Shown in pieces: positions 7,481 to 60,976 of a DNA stretch of 64,000 bases. The position numbers were made by a program, and so were the translations under genes. This stretch comes from Squalus acanthias (lineage: Eukaryota): the NCBI GenBank assembly GCA_030390025.1, contig CM059441.1, positions 40,486,001-40,550,000 on the forward strand, in the 5' to 3' direction. The number at the start of each line of letters is the position of its first letter. Within the stretch, counting starts at the first letter, position 1. Below the pieces are notes generated by a model, which was given only the letters and a program-made list of their open reading frames with translations, was not told where the DNA came from and ran no database searches.

Positions 7481-7878
7481 AAACCTCTGAATCATCAGGT
7501 CAACTTGAACAGAAAAGGCCTGTCAAGGAAATAACCAATGAGAATAACTTGATGGGTTTCAAACTTCGGCATCTTAGAATAATAGATAAGTTTGGTGATG
7601 TCATTATTGGAACGTAGGAAGACCATAGGAACAGGAGTAGGCCTTGAGCCTGTTCCGCCATTCAATTGGACCATGGATAATCTGTACCTTTACTCCATTT
7701 ACCTACCTTGGTTCTGCAACCCTTAATACCCTTACCGAACAAAAATTTAGCAATCTCAGTCTTGAAATTTCAATTGACCCCCAGCTTTTTGGGAGGAGAG
7801 TTCCAGATTTCCACTACCTTTTGTATGAAGAAGTGCTTCCTGACATCACCTCTAGTTCTAATTTTAAGGTTATGCCCC

Positions 7879-8093
7879 TGTCATAAATCGCAAGTAACAA
7901 CTCAGGAAGTACTACTGGGTGGCCAGCTGGGGCGCCGTCCAGGGAGTATAAATACTCAGGCATGGGCCCACCTTGGGCAGAGACAATCTGGAAACAGGAA
8001 GCTAGTGACTGCTAACTAGACCGCCATGTTTTGTTACAAGTTGATTAAAGCCTTGCTTTATGTTCAAGTGCGTAGTGAGTCTTTGTTACGTCA
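7879..8093 (+). repeat. 5' LTR
   Basis: tgtcataaatc...gttacgtca; contains TATAAATA and ATTAAA. Confidence 0.95.
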
Positions 8094-8193
8094 ATTTAAT
8101 CAACTTGATATCGTCTCCACGCTTTGGGTGATTCGGAACAACCAGCTGCAACTCGAACCACAGAAGGGAACTTGGGCAAGAAACTGATCCATC

Positions 8194-11100
8194 ATGGAAA
8201 AACTCCTTAGACCCGCTCGTCTCGACCTGGACCCGAATGCACCTGCGGCAGCGAAGGTATGGAAGCATTGGTTTCGTACCTTTAGCAACTTTCTTGAAGA
8301 ATGTGGGGCGGATGTCCCTAATAAGTTACGAATGCTTATCAACTACGTGTCTCCTCATGTGTATGATTATATTGAGGACTGTATAGACTATGACACTGCT
8401 ATCGAAATCTTACAGCAGCTATATGTCAAGTCCCCAAATGAAATCTTTGCTCGACACCTACTGGCCACAACTCGGCAGCAGCCTGGGGAATCACTCGATG
8501 AATTTCTCCAGAAACTTCGCAGGCTCAGCAAGGATTGTAACCTTAAAGCAGTTTCAGCTGAACAGTATCAAGAGGAACTAATCCGCGATTCCTTTATCAA
8601 TGGAATCGCATCCCTTTTATACGTCAGCGCCTGCTGGAAAATAAAACCCTCAATTTACGGGCTGCTTATGACCAGGCGTGTTCCTTGGACTTGGCCAAGA
8701 AAAATGCAGACACTTATCTCCCACCACGTGCACGGGCGGCGGCTATCTCCTTTAATGAGTCTTTCGGTAGGTCTCGGGCGGATGCCCCCACTGATGTTGA
8801 CTCTACTCTAACAGACGATGACCCTACCCTAGAGGCCTTCGCTGATGACGACCCCGCCCTAGCAGCATCCTGGCAATCAGGAAGAAAGTGTTTCTTTTGT
8901 GGAGGGGCGTGCCATCACAGAAAATTTTGTCCGGCTCGTAATGTGACCTGCAATCATTGCAGCAAGAAAGGACACTTTTCCAAGGTATGCCAGTCACTGG
9001 CCTTTGCTAACAAGAAAGGCCGCTCCTCTAAAGTATACCGGTCGAGAGCTCCTGTTAGCTTCACAGCTGCTATCTATGGAGCTGCTCCTCCCCCAAGAAC
9101 TACTGTTAAGGCTACAGTTGCCGAAGGGAAAATTGCCCCTCCTCCCATCACGGCTGTTTTTCCCCAAAGTTTGTCCCATGCAGCCACGAAGGTTTCAGTA
9201 AATGGGCACACTCTAAGCGCGCTAATCGACTCCTGCAGCTCTGACAGCTTCATTAGTAAGCGGGCTGTCAACAGGTTAAAACTGCACATTTATCCCTCGG
9301 ACAGGGAGATTGCAATGGCTCTGACGACTCTGACCACCAATTCTTCTGGCTTCTGTCTGGTCAACCTCATCCTCAACGGCCGCACGTATCTCTCCACCCG
9401 GCTCGGAGTACTCGCAAACTTATGCAGCGATGTGCTTCTGGGACAGGACTTCCAGAAGCAGCACAAGAAGATCACTTTTGAGTTTGGAGGGTCAAGGCCG
9501 GAGCTTACCATTTCTAAGGTGCCGTTTTGTGCACTCTCGGCGGCCTTACTCGGTGAACCCTCCCTGTTTGCCAATCTTCCCCCCCGCTGTAAACCCATAG
9601 CCACCAAATCGCGACGCTTTAGCCAAGATGATCGAGCGTTTATTGAGGCGGAAATCTCTCGCCTTTTAGTCGACGGTATTATCGAGCCATGTTCATCTCC
9701 CTGGCGGGCTCAGGTCGTCATCGTGAGGAATCCCTTAAAACAACATAAACGTCTGTGTATCGATTATTCGCAGACTATTAATCTATATACCGATCTGGAT
9801 GCCTACCCGCTGCCACGCATAGATGACATGGTCAACAACCTTGCCAAATACAAGGTATTCTCGACCTTCGATTTAAAAAGCGCGTACCATCAGGTGCCAC
9901 TGCAAGACTCCGACAAGAAGTATACGGCCTTTGAGGCCAATGGTCGGCTTTTCCAGTTTCGCCGCCTTCCATTCGGGGTCACCAATGGGGTGGCCGTCTT
10001 CCAACGGGCCATGGATGGCCTAGTCCGGCAAGAGAACTTGACGGATACCTTTCCGTATTTAGACAATATCACTATTGCCGGCCATGATCAAAAGGAGCAT
10101 GACGCCAATCTTCAGAGATTTTTTGACGTCGCCACTTGACGTTAAACGAATCCAAATCGGTGAAGTCGGTGCCATCGGTGAACATTCTTGGCTACTGGGT
10201 GGGCAACGGTGTTATTAAACCGGACCCAAAGCGACTTCGTCCACTTCAGGAGCTCCCTCCCCTGACAAACCTCGGCTCTCTTCGTCGGGCACTTGGCATG
10301 TTTGCTTATTACGCAAAATGGATACCACACTTCTCCGATAAAATACAGCCCCTGCTCCATGCGAAGTCTTTTCCATTGGAAGCTACGGCTATTTCTGCCT
10401 TCAACCTCCTCAAACGACAGCTGGAGAAAGCCACGCTTCGCTCCATTGACGAAAATCTTCCTTTTGTGGTCGAATGCGATGCATCGGAGGTGGCGATCTC
10501 CGCTACCTTGAATCAAGGTGGCCGACCCGTGGCATTCCTATCCAGAACCTTGCAGGGTAGCGAGCTCCATTACCCCCCCCGTCGAGAAGGAGGCTACGGC
10601 CATCATCGAGGCTGTACGCCAATGGGGTCATTTTCTTGCTCGGCGTCATTTTACGCTTATAACTGACCAGCGCTCTGTGGCCTTCATGTTGGATAACCGG
10701 AGGCGCACGAAAATCAAAAATAATAAAATTCAACTCTGGAGGATGGAGCTGGCTGCCTTTGGATATACTATCTGTTACCGACCCGGCAAACAGAACGTGG
10801 CCCCAGATACCTTCACACGGGCATTTTGCTCCTCAATGTCAACGTCGACTCTGGCGGATTTGCATATGGACTTATGCCATCCTGGTGTGACCCGCATGTT
10901 GCACTTTGTGCGCTCCAAAAATCTACCATTTTCAACCGAGGACGTAAAGAAAACATGCTCCTCCTGTAGGATTTGTGCAGAATTGAAACCACAATTCTTT
11001 CGCCCATCAGATGGCTTACTCATACATGCAATGCAGCCTATGCAGAGGCTCAGCATAGACTTTAAAGGGCCATTGCCTTCGTCGACAAGGAACACCTACC

Positions 11101-12113
11101 TACTTACGATGGTGGACGAGTATTCACGCTTTCCCTTCGCCTTCCCCTGCCCTAATATGCTTACCTCTACGGTAATTAAATGCCTCGATCAGGTCTTTTC
11201 CCTTTGCGGGACGGCCAATTTTATCCACACTGATCGGGGTCCCTCCTTTATGTCGAGTGAACTTAAAAGTTATCTCTCCCAACGGGGAATCGCCTCAAGT
11301 AGGACGACACCATATCACCCAATCGGTAACGGACAGGTTGAACGATACAATGCCATCATCTGGAACGCTGTCCGTCTGGCACTAAGGTCACGCAACCTGC
11401 CGGACCAGCAGTGGGAAACGGTGCTCCCCGACGCGTTACACTCTATCAGGTCTCTTCTCTCCACATCTACTAATGTCACACCTCATGAGCGATTCTTCAA
11501 ATTCCGGCGTCGCTCTACACATGGGACGTCTCTACCGTCATGGTTGGTGGCTCCAGGCCCGGTACTACTCCGGAGGTTCGTCCGGTCTGCCAAAAACGAC
11601 CCTCTCGTTGACGAGGTGGAGTTAACGGAGGTAAACCCCACGTATGCACACGTACGGTACCCTGATGGCCGGGAGACCACCGTCTCGCTCCGAGATCTGG
11701 CTCCCTGCCCAACCGGTCACACGGGCCCGAATAATGAAGGATCCCCCGACAATGATATCAACACTCCGCACCCCTATGAAAATGACGCCCCGCCTGGGAC
11801 ATCGGGGATCTGCCGGCAACGCTACCGGATCAACTCAGGGAGCTGGACGCTCCCCGTAGGATGGCCACCCGAAACCAGGACGCCGGACAATCTCCAGCCA
11901 CGACCCGGGATGAGGCCAGCTCAGCACCTGTGGGGACCCGCACCCGGAGTCATGATATTCCCAGTCCTCCACAGGATGATCAGGATGATGCGGACTCTAC
12001 TGACTTACCGGTACGGGCCAAGCGACCCAGGGACCAGGACACGGTCCGGGGAGACGTGCCTTCCAGTCACAAGCAGAGAGCTAAACGTCTGCGGCTATTT
12101 CTGGTCCGCCTAG
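8194..12113 (+). pseudogene. Gypsy gag-pol polyprotein, broken by frameshifts (~8620, ~10137, ~10571)
   Basis: Gag with two Cys/His knuckles (CFFCGGACHHRKFC, CNHCSKKGHFSKVC); protease ALIDSCS; RT DLKSAYHQ...LPFG...YLDN; RNase H CDASEVAI; integrase HxxxxHP..CxxC, IDFKGP, HTDRG, GQVERYN. No chromodomain seen. Confidence 0.92.
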
Positions 12114-12159
12114 TCCGTTAAAGGAAGACTGGACTTCCAAACCTTTTAGGGAGGAAGAA

Positions 12160-12374
12160 TGTCATAAATCGCAAGTAACAACTCAGGAAGTACTACTGGG
12201 TGGCCAGCTGGGGCGCCGTCCAGGGAGTATAAATACTCCGGCATGGGCCCACCTTGGGCAGAGACAATCTGGAAACAGGAAGCTAGTGACTGCTAACTAG
12301 ACTTCCATGTTTTGTTACAAGTTGATTAAAGCCTTGCTTTATGTTCAAGTGCGTAGTGAGTCTTTATTACGTCA
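12160..12374 (+). repeat. 3' LTR
   Basis: Direct repeat of 7879-8093, followed by TSD gcccc. Confidence 0.95.
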
Positions 12375-12584
12375 GCCCCCTTGTTCTGAACTCCCAACTA
12401 TAAATGTTGAATCCTAAAAGAACTCAACCTGTGGCAATAAAATGCTTTACTGTGGCATTTCAATGAAAGAGTGGGGAAGGAGAAGAGGTGGGCATCACGA
12501 CACATGCAAGCGACGTCAGGACGCCTTAAGTTGCGTATTGATAAATAAACCAAGAGGAAAGGTTTGTCAATAGGAAGCGGTTAA

Positions 12585-28277: not shown

Positions 28278-29043
28278 GGCCCGGAATTTGCGGTTGTGAT
28301 GACGGTGAACCTGTCAGCATTTACCGTCACTACTCTGTGAAACTGACAGCAATTTCTGGCGTCCGCACGTGCGCAGTTAAATGAGGAAATCCTGAAGTTG
28401 CTGTCAGAGATTCCCCGCTCCTCCACAGGGTCCGCTGTTGAAGTTCTCGCAGATGAAAATCTTAGAAATCACTTGAATTGACGTGAACTTCCACTTTTTG
28501 CTCTCTGATCTAGCCGTAAAAACCCACAAAAAAGTTAAGCCTTGTTGAATGAGGTGTAACTGGGTTTTTAATGGTATACTAAGTCATATTTACTGCTGAA
28601 CAGCCTATCTGGCCCTGAAAAACTAATTTTATATTTGTGGAATGCCAAATTTCACCATTATGATAAAAATTCCCATAGATTTTTAAAATAATAAAATGTT
28701 TTTAAGTTGTTTTATGATATTTCATCTTCTACCTTAAACCCATGTGTATGCCCCAATCTTTATTTTGTTCTCTATAAAATGATTAAAAAGTGAAGGATAA
28801 TCAGTGCTTTTTACTTCCGGGTTTGCTGTCTGTGAGAATTCTTCAATGTGATTGGCTGCTTAGCCTGCTTGATGACGTCACTGTTGCTGAACGGTGGAAA
28901 TCCCCACTAGATGGCACCAGAATGAAATTAACGTCAGGAAAGGTGAAATCGACGTCACAGAGATCGCTAGATCTTTGTGGGCAGCTTTCTTCGAGGTCAG
29001 TGGCAAATGCCGTCACTTCGTCACTGACCGCAAAATCCGGACC
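28278..29043. mobile_element. Harbinger-like MITE ending 47 bp upstream of APOBEC2 exon 2
   Basis: TIRs ggcccggaatttgcggt ... accgcaaaatccggacc; flanks ttt and att. Confidence 0.75.
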
Positions 29044-29090
29044 ATTGTATCCTTGCTATGTCCACTAACATCTGCTTCTTTCTTTTCCAG

Positions 29091-29625
29091 ACAACGCATG
29101 GCATCCCATTACTTCAAGTTCCAGTTCAAAAATGTAGAATATTCTTCAGGAAGGAATAAAACATTTTTGTGCTATTCAGTGGAGCAACAGGGCACGGAGT
29201 GCGAGAGGTTGGAGGGATACGTGGAGGATGAGCACACAGGCACACACGCAGAAGAGGCCTTCTTCACAAACATCTTCCAGAGGTGCGATGGCAGCCTGAG
29301 CTACTCCATCATTTGGCATGTGTCCTCCAGCCCTTGCAACACGTGTGCTTCTAAAATCGCTGAGCAACTGAGCAAGTGCCCCAATGTTCACCTTACCATC
29401 TTCACGGCCCGCTTGTTCATGTGGGAAGAGCCCGAGATCCAGCAAGGCCTACGGCAGCTGCAAGCAGCCGGCTGTCGATTGAGGATCATGAAGGCTTCGG
29501 AGTATAATTACTGCTGGAACACCTACGTCGAAAACGAGGGGGAGGCTTTCGCGCCTTGGGAGGACCTTCAAGACAGCAGCATGTTTTACGAAGGGAAACT
29601 AAATGAAATTCTGCAACATGCCTAG
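29091..29625 (+). CDS. APOBEC2: APOBEC2 coding exon 2, zinc-dependent cytidine deaminase fold
   Basis: Branch-like ctaac (29065-29069), polypyrimidine tract and ttccag| acceptor at 29090. Translation has FKFQFKNVEYSSGRNKTFLCY, HAEEAFF (HxE), SSSPCNTC (PCxxC) and RLFMWEEPEIQ, all diagnostic of APOBEC2. TAG at 29623-29625, then donor AAG|gtgaga at 29629/29630. Spliced CDS is 654 nt = 217 aa. Confidence 0.97.
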
Positions 29626-58258: not shown

Positions 58259-60976
58259 AAAACAGAAAATGCTGGAAATACTCAGCAGGTCAGGCAGCAT
58301 CTGTGGAGAGAGAAAGAGTGTTAACGTTTCAGGTTGATGACCCTTCGTCAGAACTGGGAAAAGCTGGAGATGGAATAGGTTTTTAAGCAAGTGCAGGGGC
58401 AGGGAAAGGGGGGAGGGGAGGAAAGAACAAAAGGGAAGGTCTGATAGGATGGAAGGCAGGAGAGATTAAAAGACATTAAGAGATGATGCAAAGCAAAAGG
58501 AGATGGTAATGGGACAAGTTAAGAAACAAAAGATGGCCCTAGATGAAGTGTAAATGGCATCGGCAGAATGAAAGACAGCTGCCATGTGGGGGAGAAATAA
58601 ATAAATAAATTAAATGAGAGAAAAAAGGAAAGGGGCAGAGGTTATGGTCTGAAATTGTTGAACTCTATGTTGAGTCCAGAAGGCTGTAAAATGTTTAATC
58701 AAAAGATGGGGTGCGGTTCCTCGAGCTTACGTTGAGCTTCACTGGAACAGTGTAAAAGGCCGAGGACGGTGAGGTCTGAGTGGGAGTGGAGCGGAGAATT
58801 AAAGTCACAGGTGACCGGAAGCTCGGGGTCCCCCTTACGGACTGAATGGAGGTGTTCCGCAAAGCGGTCACCCAATCTGCGTTTGGTCTCCCCAATGTAG
58901 AGGAGACCACATCGTGAGCAGCGAATAAAGTATACTAAATTGCAAGAACAACAAGTAAATCGCTGTTTCACCTGGAAGGAGTGTTTGGGGTCCTGGACAG
59001 TGGGAAGGGTGGAGGTAAAAGGGCATGTGTTGCATCTCCTGTGCTTGCACGGGAAGGTGCCGGGCAAAGGGGATGGGGTGTTCAGGGTGATAGGGGAGTG
59101 GACCAGGGTGTCGCGGAGGGAGCAGTCCCTTCGGAATGCTGAAAGGGGAGGCGAGGGGAAAATGTGTTTGGTGGTGGGATCACGCTGGAGGTGGCGGAAA
59201 TGGCGGAGGATGATCTGTTGAATGTGGAGGCTGGTGGTGGGAACCCTATCGTGGTTCCGGGAGGGAGGGGAAGGGGTGAGAGCCAAAGTGCGGGAAATAG
59301 AACAGACACGGCCAAGGGCCGTAACAACCACATTAGAGGGGAATCTTCGGTTGAGGAAAAAGGAAGACATGTCGGAAGCACTGGTATGGAAGGTGGCATC
59401 GTCAGAGCAGATGCGGCAGAGATGGAGAAACTGGGAGAATGGAATAGAGTCCTTACAGGAAGCGGGGTGGGAGGAAATGTAGTCCAGGTAGCTGTGGGCT
59501 TGTAGTAAATGTTTGTCGATAGCCTATCCCCAGAGATGGAGACAGAGAAGTCAAGGCAGGGAAGGGAAGAGTCGGAGATGGACCATGTGAAGGTGAGGGA
59601 AAGTGAATGAAATTTTCTAGAGCAGGAAACAGCACCGATACAGTTATCAATGTACCGGAAAAAGAGGTGAGGGAGGGGACCGGAGTAGGACTGGAACAAA
59701 GAATGTTCCACACATCCCACGAAAAGGCAGGCATAGCTGGGACCCATGTGGGTTCCCATAGCAACACCTTTAATTTGGAGGAAGTGAGTGGAGTCAAAAG
59801 GAGAAGTTGTTCAATGTGAGAACAAGTTCAGCCAAGTGGAGGAGGGTGGTGGTGGATGGGGACTGGTTGGGCCTCTGTTCAAGGAAGAAGCGGAGCGCCC
59901 TCAGGCCATCCGGGTGGGGGACGGAGGTGTAGAGGGATTGGACGTCCATAGTGAAAAGGAGATGGTTGGGGCCAGGCAACTGTTAAAGTGACGGAGGGCG
60001 TCGGAAGAGTCGCGGATGTAGGTGGGAAGAGACTGGACAGGGAGAAAGGAGAGTCAAGATAGGAAGAGATAAGTTCCGTGGGGCAAGAACAGGCTGAAAC
60101 GATGGGTCTACTGGGGTAGTCCGGTTTGTGGATCTTGGGAAGGAAGTAGAAGCGGGCTGTGCAGGGTTGGGGAATTATGAGGTTGGCGGCCATGGGAGGG
60201 AAGATCTCCAGAGGAGATGAGGTCAGTGACGGTCTTGGAAACGGTGGCTTGATGTTCGGTAGTGGGGGTCATGGTCCAGGTGGAGGTAGGAGGCGGCGTC
60301 AAAGAGTTGGCGTTCAGCCTCCGCTAGGTAGAGGTCGGTTTGCCAAACAACAACAGCACCACCCTTGTCAACAGGTTTAATGACAAGGTTGTGGTTGGAT
60401 CTGAGAGAATGGAGTGCTGCAAGTTCAGAGGGAGGTAGGTTGGAGTGAGTGAGGGGAGCAGAGAAATTGAGACGGCCGATGTCACGCCGGCAGTTTGCAA
60501 TGAAAAGATCTAGAGAGGTTAAGAGGCCAGAGGGAGAGGTCCAGGTAGAACGAGAATTCTGAAAACAGGAGAAAGGGTCAGCTGTGCAGGGGACAGGGGA
60601 CCGGGGGGGGGGGGGGGGGGGGAAGGAGAAGACTCCTGGCCAAAGAAGTGGGCACGGAGACGAAGGTGGCGGAAAAAGAGCTCAGCATCGTGCCGAGCTC
60701 GAAATTCATTGAGATGGGGGCATAAGGGGATAAAGCTCAGGCCTTTGCTAAGGACTGATCGTTCGGGGTCAGAGAGGGGGCAAGGTCAGAGGGATAGTGA
60801 AAACACGGCAGGGGGTGGATTGGAAAAAGGGATGGGGTCAGAGGAAAGTGAAGGGGAAGAAGGTTCCAGATGGAAGTTGGTGTCCAAGAGTTGTTGAAGC
60901 TTGCGATCCATGTCACCTGAAAAGGAAGAAAAAAAGTTTTTTGTTAAAGTGTCGGATGAGGCGAAGGATGAAATGG
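58259..60976 (-). mobile_element. Penelope-like retroelement (RT + GIY-YIG, disrupted) with 15-bp TSD
   Basis: LPKIHKPD..RPIVS, TMDVQSLYTSVP, MGTHMGPSYACLF, FRYIDN, NLVYFIRCSRCGLLYIGET; TSD agtcatttcaggata at 58244-58258 and 60977-60991; hammerhead motif at 58320-58356. Confidence 0.9.

Follow-up and report, generated by a model that had tools for sequence, protein, structure and literature searches.

Positions 7879–12374 of the 64,000-nt stretch of Squalus acanthias DNA analysed here (the window) hold a complete Ty3/Gypsy retrotransposon with 215-bp LTRs, which is young yet frame-broken. Its features, together with those that bear on priming, are as follows (all on the forward strand, except for the target-site duplications, which have no strand; family counts refer to the relatives described below).

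7874–7878: left target-site duplication, GCCCC
7879–8093: 5′ LTR, 215 bp, TG...CA, 98.1% identical to the 3′ LTR
7947–7954: candidate promoter, TATA-like TATAAATA, placed 92 nt before the AGT motif
8037–8049: LTR arm CAAGTTGATTAAA, candidate self-primer with its 3′ end at 8049
8039–8041: AGT, initiator-like, candidate transcription start, −11 to −9 from the arm end
8044–8049: ATTAAA, poly(A)-signal-like hexamer at the arm end (a sequence match only)
8050–8053: GCCT directly past the predicted cut at 8049/8050, the 5′ side of a hairpin conserved in relatives
8094: one base separating the LTR-terminal CA from the primer-binding site, A in 18 of 20 families
8095–8107: primer-binding site (PBS) TTTAATCAACTTG, complement of 8037–8049
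8194–8811: beginning of gag and first ORF piece, with a frame break near 8600
8562–10139: ORF piece with the Gag C-part, protease and RT (YLDN), frame break near 10130
8889–8930 and 8949–8990: two Gag zinc knuckles, CX2CX4HX4C
10127–10666: ORF piece holding the end of RT and the beginning of RNase H, with a frame break near 10570
10512–12113: ORF piece with the RNase H end and an integrase without chromodomain, tail out of frame near 11800
12148–12159: polypurine tract AGGGAGGAAGAA, 12 nt
12160–12374: 3′ LTR, with its own arm copy at 12318–12330 and no PBS behind it
12375–12379: right target-site duplication, GCCCC

The coding region lies in four overlapping pieces, with frameshifts close to 8600, 10130, 10570 and 11800; relatives, by contrast, carry a single ORF of about 1200 aa. 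The domain order protease–RT–RNase H–integrase is that of Gypsy elements, and direct TG...CA LTRs, a 5-bp target-site duplication and a polypurine tract before the 3′ LTR likewise place the element in the Metaviridae; the best PDB match was Ty3 Gag-Pol. As described previously, Gag has two zinc knuckles and a chromodomain is absent, a search of the window integrase ORF having returned no chromodomain match. The two LTR copies (7879–8093 and 12160–12374) differ at 4 of 215 positions, none of them inside the stem discussed below, and the element is covered by contigs from three sequencing runs; the one raw RNA run gave 0 reads, an outcome that carries no weight. Between 70 and 84% of sampled 31-mers from 7879–12374 occur in sequencing runs under six organism codes, which points either to a young family common to close relatives or to one recently moved between hosts. 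The third catalytic aspartate of RT is often asparagine in the relatives (YxDN in 38 of 50 motif matches and YLDD in 12, among proteins of more than 600 aa), and the window RT (ORF 8562–10139) likewise reads YLDN. A short palindrome surrounds the TATA-like motif at 7943–7960 and 12224–12241 (3′ LTR: GGAGTAT-AA-ATACTCC).

Elsewhere in the window, the left flank of the element (7600–7878) is a very high-copy repeat in other runs, with several copies within the window, and resembles a piece of a CR1-type LINE. No contig extended over the right flank (12375 onward). An APOBEC2-like coding exon, preceded by an acceptor-like ttttccag and suggestive of a vertebrate host, lies at 29070–29625 on the forward strand (Pfam APOBEC2, E 3e-60 on ORF 28891–29622). 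ORF 58699–59523 on the reverse strand, which gave a weak GIY-YIG match just under the Pfam cut-off (E 1.7e-4), is perhaps part of a Penelope-like element.

A preliminary description of the locus had reported a 13-nt segment behind the 5′ LTR that is complementary to the LTR itself and leaves a 45-nt loop. We found this match to be exact: 8037–8049 and 8095–8107 are perfect reverse complements over 13 bp, the loop (8050–8094) is 45 nt long, and the segment in PBS position begins one base past the LTR end at 8093. When mock PBSs from random window positions were compared with the same LTR, a 13-nt complement was obtained at 0 of 39,533 positions and a 12-nt complement at 5. The 13-bp stem was present in both the MFE and centroid folds of 7975–8200, with predicted duplex energies of −13.3 kcal/mol for 13 bp and −9.8 kcal/mol for the last 11. 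The region as a whole was no more stable than shuffles (z +1.73), and a further pairing of the sequence behind the PBS, examined in the window copy, appeared in the MFE fold but was absent from the centroid.

Relatives were fetched by Gag alignment, yielding 80 metagenome loci and 3 genome loci. Nine loci with less than 120 nt upstream of gag were left out, and 73 loci together with the window copy (74 in all) were analysed and sorted by shared gag words into 24 families. Perfect inverted repeats of at least 12 nt were found in 48 of the 74 loci, 42 of them beginning at position CA+1 behind the LTR, and 20 of the 24 families had at least one copy with a perfect 12–18-bp match (median 15) at CA+1. 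Three of the remaining families (L057, L042 and L061) pair at 10 of 12 positions in register, and one (L039) shows no arm. An unselected scan that allowed G-U pairs and mismatches returned at least 10 of 12 Watson–Crick pairs in 63 of the 74 loci; 10 of the 11 loci without a match in register belong to families with a perfect sibling. Across the 20 families, whose representatives have Gag pieces 33–78% identical, loop length ranges from 24 to 72 nt, yet the partner starts exactly at CA+1. In three of the loci left out (L014, L016 and L019) the match was visible by eye, in L014 only when two contig ends were placed side by side.

Several observations concern the sample itself. In one short contig (L050:1-1049), a truncated gag is combined with two LTR copies, each about 120 bp long, and the stem is kept; the contig is possibly a non-autonomous deletion derivative, or may be an assembly artefact. 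Three members of this animal clade (L081, L082 and L083) sit in contigs filed as bacterial MAGs, and polyproteins P0197 and P0283 carry bacterial labels; clade elements under such labels are host DNA in bacterial bins. Scans of viral contigs found no relative, and an ESM Atlas search returned unnamed Gag clusters only.

Next, we examined whether the two arms change together. The 20 family representatives were picked for a stem of at least 12 bp, so that pairing at −1 to −12 from the arm end is built in, whereas letter variety is not. Over 16 pairs, 94.7% of cells were paired, against 30–46% in registers slid by 1–3 columns. Both-sided changes occurred in 15 of the 16 pairs (76 cells), and none of 500 shuffles reached these figures. 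Among the 20 families there are 16 distinct PBS 11-mers, every one of which finds its match in the LTR of the same element; of 380 combinations of arm and PBS taken from different families, only 10 were fully paired. One 11-mer, TTTAATCAACT, recurs in several families. Two loci 91% alike in gag DNA (L029 and L065) differ by a single concerted T-A to C-G change mirrored on both arms. Pairing extended to −13 to −16, with 58 of 80 cells paired within families against a fraction of 0.42 across families (0 of 20,000 permutations), and dropped to background at −17. Covariation in related families, proposed earlier as a check, is thus present, and absence of the complementarity from sister families, which would have spoken against it, was not seen. 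Together, these results confirm that the complementarity between LTR and PBS is a real, clade-wide feature.

The best reading of these data is that the window element very probably primes minus-strand DNA synthesis with its own RNA, as the preliminary description had suggested; the matched families, the both-sided changes and the variety of PBS 11-mers all argue for it. The polarity of arm and PBS is correct for priming. The arm ends in A in all 20 families, and the next three bases are G, C and C, each in 16 of 20. A hairpin starting at the base after the arm (the +1 hairpin) had a summed stem length of 80, compared with 57.7 ± 4.7 in shuffled sequences (0 of 2,000), with several pair types at its positions 4–5. 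These features place the predicted 3′ end of the primer at AAA/G (8049/8050). By analogy with Tf1, we propose that in the genomic RNA the 5′-LTR arm (8037–8049) would fold onto the PBS (8095–8107), and that the element's RT/RNase H would cut at AAA/G, at the foot of the hairpin. The new 3′-OH would then be extended over 8094 to 8050, yielding a strong-stop DNA of about 45 nt, which could jump to the 3′ LTR via the stretch that separates the cut from the poly(A) site. Poly(A) sites lie some 10–30 nt behind the hexamer. Later, plus-strand synthesis would copy 12–18 nt of the primer into the PBS, so that the PBS stays its exact complement. Consistent with this last step, G-U pairs are few in the main duplex (4 in 756 cells over 63 loci, compared with 14 in 66 pairs of the adjacent +1 hairpin), which favours the arm as a primer copied into the PBS, because a helix recopied from its partner rejects G-U pairs while one kept for RNA shape tolerates them. 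[quoted passage not shown]

Some observations count against self-priming. First, the match in register is missing from 11 of the 74 loci, and family L039 lacks it altogether. Second, the +1 hairpin is only 2 bp long in the window copy and in 3 other families. Last, copying of the primer into the PBS is no general rule, since in Ty1 and Ty3 the PBS is reported to be inherited rather than copied from the primer (PMC7472051).

The 5′ end of the primer may lie either at the AGT motif, giving a Tf1-like primer of 11–12 nt, or further upstream. AGT occupies −11 to −9 from the arm end (A in 16, G in 19 and T in 18 of 20 families) and resembles an initiator, by the INR consensus as given in the available text of PMC3601003. 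It lies exactly 11 nt from the arm end, but pairing runs on to −13 to −16. The additional pairs call for RNA upstream of AGT and favour at least some longer transcripts; such RNA could stem from the 3′ LTR copy, from scattered start sites, or from a start further away, for which there is the TATA-like motif at 7947. The distance of TATA-like motifs from the arm varies between families (about −27 to −31 in 4 of 20 and about −92 to −117 in 5 of 20). The AG at −11/−10 was also considered as a splice acceptor and rejected, with 5 of 20 families lacking AG and the preceding base being a purine in 11 of 20. A pyrimidine tract followed by YAG was seen 14–57 nt upstream of the arm end in L014, L019, L020, L042, L050, L081 and others, the sites of L014, L019 and L020 being judged by eye only. 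Such upstream acceptor-like sites occurred in 7 of 22 families against 3.4 ± 1.6 in shuffled sequences (18 of 500) in a post hoc comparison, and none was found in the window copy; we did not adopt them.

A variant of self-priming, whose probability forms part of that given above to self-priming as a whole, would take the primer from the other end of the RNA: the arm copy of the 3′ LTR, or a short LTR-only RNA, cut or ending at AAA would anneal to the PBS and thereby either circularize the RNA or act as a primer in trans. The 3′ copy always has bases upstream of AGT, so that a transcript starting at −11 would still be compatible with the pairing at −13 to −16, and the +1 hairpin, being local, could arise in both LTRs alike. 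Starts that are dispersed or lie upstream account for the extra pairs just as well, however, the short loop to the 5′ copy favours local folding, and the self-primers described in the available portions of the literature all come from the 5′ LTR. We therefore regard the 3′-end source as rather unlikely.

Whether the stem could instead serve as a poly(A) switch only, hiding the hexamer of the 5′ LTR while another RNA primes elsewhere, was weighed against the position of the hexamer. The ATTAAA reported earlier to overlap the LTR arm is present at 8044–8049, and a canonical A(A/T)TAAA overlaps the arm end in 14 of the 20 families. A pairing partner exists only behind the 5′ LTR, and the 5′ signal of HIV-1, which is occluded by a hairpin, offers a precedent. 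Six families (L004, L024, L025, L026, L036 and L050) nevertheless keep a perfect stem without a canonical hexamer at the arm end, two of them with variant hexamers, so poly(A) occlusion, also put forward in the preliminary description, fails to account for the stem in general. Simple masking does not require a partner placed exactly at CA+1 despite such variable loops, nor does it fit a duplex almost free of G-U pairs. Moreover, the PBS start lies 15–28 nt from the gag start in 12 of 20 representatives, and leaders of this length have no room for another PBS. A stem with this sole function is very unlikely; hiding the 5′ signal is at most a side role of self-priming, and may be a by-product in the families that have a hexamer there.

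Priming by a host RNA, such as a tRNA half or another small RNA, with the LTR match as a by-product, is less credible still. No TGG follows the LTR in the window copy after 8093, in agreement with the preliminary description, or in any of the 20 family representatives, in contrast to tRNA-primed Gypsy elements. A search for tRNA genes in the window and the 83 loci found none, and no Rfam match at E up to 10 was obtained in 7800–8300. The recurrence of one 11-mer in several families would suit a shared host primer, and half-tRNA priming exists in Copia lineages according to the available text of PMC6317226. Against this stand the 16 different 11-mers, each with its own LTR match and none with TGG: one host tRNA end cannot be their common source, and a PBS that fits a host tRNA, the other finding that would have spoken against self-priming, did not appear. 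Covariation thus largely rules out a host primer. Finally, chance, or an old local inversion inherited without function, might draw on the AT-richness of both arms and the unremarkable stability of the region, but has a negligible probability in the face of the mock-PBS comparison and of a match kept, with changes on both sides, across Gag pieces so divergent.

The element had also been placed provisionally in a lineage other than Tf1/sushi. Searches for a Chromo domain in 11 relative polyproteins gave 0 of 11 matches at E up to 0.05, and the clade is therefore not filed under Tf1/sushi. Identity to polyprotein P0209 over RT–RNase H was 50–64% in six clade members among the long polyproteins and at most 37% in the other 114 Gypsy polyproteins listed. 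In both a FastTree of 125 rows and an IQ-TREE quick tree of 52 rows, the clade was a single, fully supported group with a long stem, and it fell outside the main chromodomain-bearing group, as did some chromodomain-bearing rows. Long branches reduce the reliability of these trees, and the sequences in them include no named Tf1, sushi, Mag or Cigr-1 element. When the clade was constrained to group with the main chromodomain-bearing group, the resulting tree exceeded that of the quick free search by 13.6 log units (p-AU 0.72) and placed the clade as sister to that group; in three trees its RT–RNase H was not nested among chromodomain elements. The earlier claim holds as far as membership is concerned, for a distinct clade without chromodomain, but a sister position to the chromodomain elements fits the data. 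With that position not rejected, an independent origin is unproven, and a self-priming ancestor may have been shared with chromoviruses.

Named hosts of the relatives, assigned from protein only and not from the LTR, are Xenia, Nematostella, Hydra, Macrobrachium, Palaemon, Oratosquilla, Caligus, Gigantopelta, Macrosiphum, Periplaneta, Trichuris, Clavelina, Myxine, Scyliorhinus and Narcine, and thus comprise cnidarians, crustaceans, molluscs, insects, a nematode, a tunicate, a hagfish and cartilaginous fishes. The clade may correspond to a MolGy or Cigr-1 clade as named in PMC6238403, in whose main text, as far as available, 'PBS' does not occur. A literature search for a name of the clade, including YLDN in a paper's supplements, gave no match, part of the sequence supplements being unreadable.

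Self-priming has been regarded as characteristic of the Tf1/sushi chromoviruses and of one Copia lineage in plants, and our literature search found it for Tf1/sushi, Tcn1 and plant TAR elements and for no animal Gypsy clade without chromodomain, although Repbase Reports and subscription journals may hold a mention. If the reading proposed here is true, a large non-chromodomain Gypsy clade would extend self-priming across animals, and how often tRNA-independent priming arose would become testable. Such elements would be beyond the reach of tRNA-fragment silencing at the PBS, to judge from the accessible part of PMC7472051, and host jumps may be eased by independence from the host tRNA set. Pipelines that demand a tRNA PBS score such elements as 'no PBS', and the conserved AAA/GCC boundary with its hairpin predicts an exact RNase H cut site. 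We tentatively suggest, as a possibility rather than the expected outcome, that this animal Gypsy lineage acquired self-priming independently of Tf1/sushi and uses a longer or internal LTR primer, possibly from the 3′ copy, instead of the capped first 11 bases; in it, the AAA/G cut would fall at the foot of a conserved hairpin, PBS length would reflect the extent of RT copying, and the duplex would also silence the 5′ poly(A) signal.

Among known systems, tRNA-primed animal Gypsy elements (Mag A/B/C, CsRN1, errantiviruses and mollusc MolGy) resemble the window clade in their short TG...CA LTRs, 5-bp target-site duplications, CCHC knuckles, lack of a chromodomain and marine-animal range, but differ in the TGG that the clade lacks and in RT–RNase H, where identity is at least 50% between clade members but no more than 37% with the other Gypsy polyproteins listed. 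The dictyostelid Skipper elements are Gypsy elements that have likewise lost the TGG site but, according to the available text of PMC5006619, they have a polypyrimidine stretch without LTR complement and a chromodomain. For the TAR lineage of plant Ty1/Copia elements (Houba, Osr-1) and for Tcn1 chromoviruses, self-priming has, like here, been predicted from complementarity between LTR and PBS, as the accessible part of PMC6317226 describes, and the TAR lineage indicates that self-priming exists outside chromoviruses. TAR elements are, however, Copia elements of plants with integrase upstream of RT, whereas the window element has the Gypsy order, with integrase last, and its named relatives are from animals. 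There is also a likeness to Tf1/sushi, in which Tf1 and Tf2 of Schizosaccharomyces pombe and Tj1 of S. japonicus are Ty3/Gypsy elements with an LTR-complementary PBS behind the 5′ LTR and no tRNA site (available text of PMC7175516, PMC4600332 and PMC10085805). The Tf1 primer is the 5′ end of the RNA, which the candidate primer of the window clade may or may not be. In the three-duplex 'pretzel' of Tf1, PBS-adjacent sequence pairs with the LTR (PMC10085805); the second helix enriched in the window clade is a different one, a local hairpin right past the predicted cut. It further differs from Tf1/sushi in the missing chromodomain (11 of 11 relatives scanned), and from Tf1 in a duplex of 12–18 bp rather than 11 and in an arm that ends, in most families, in a poly(A)-signal-like hexamer.
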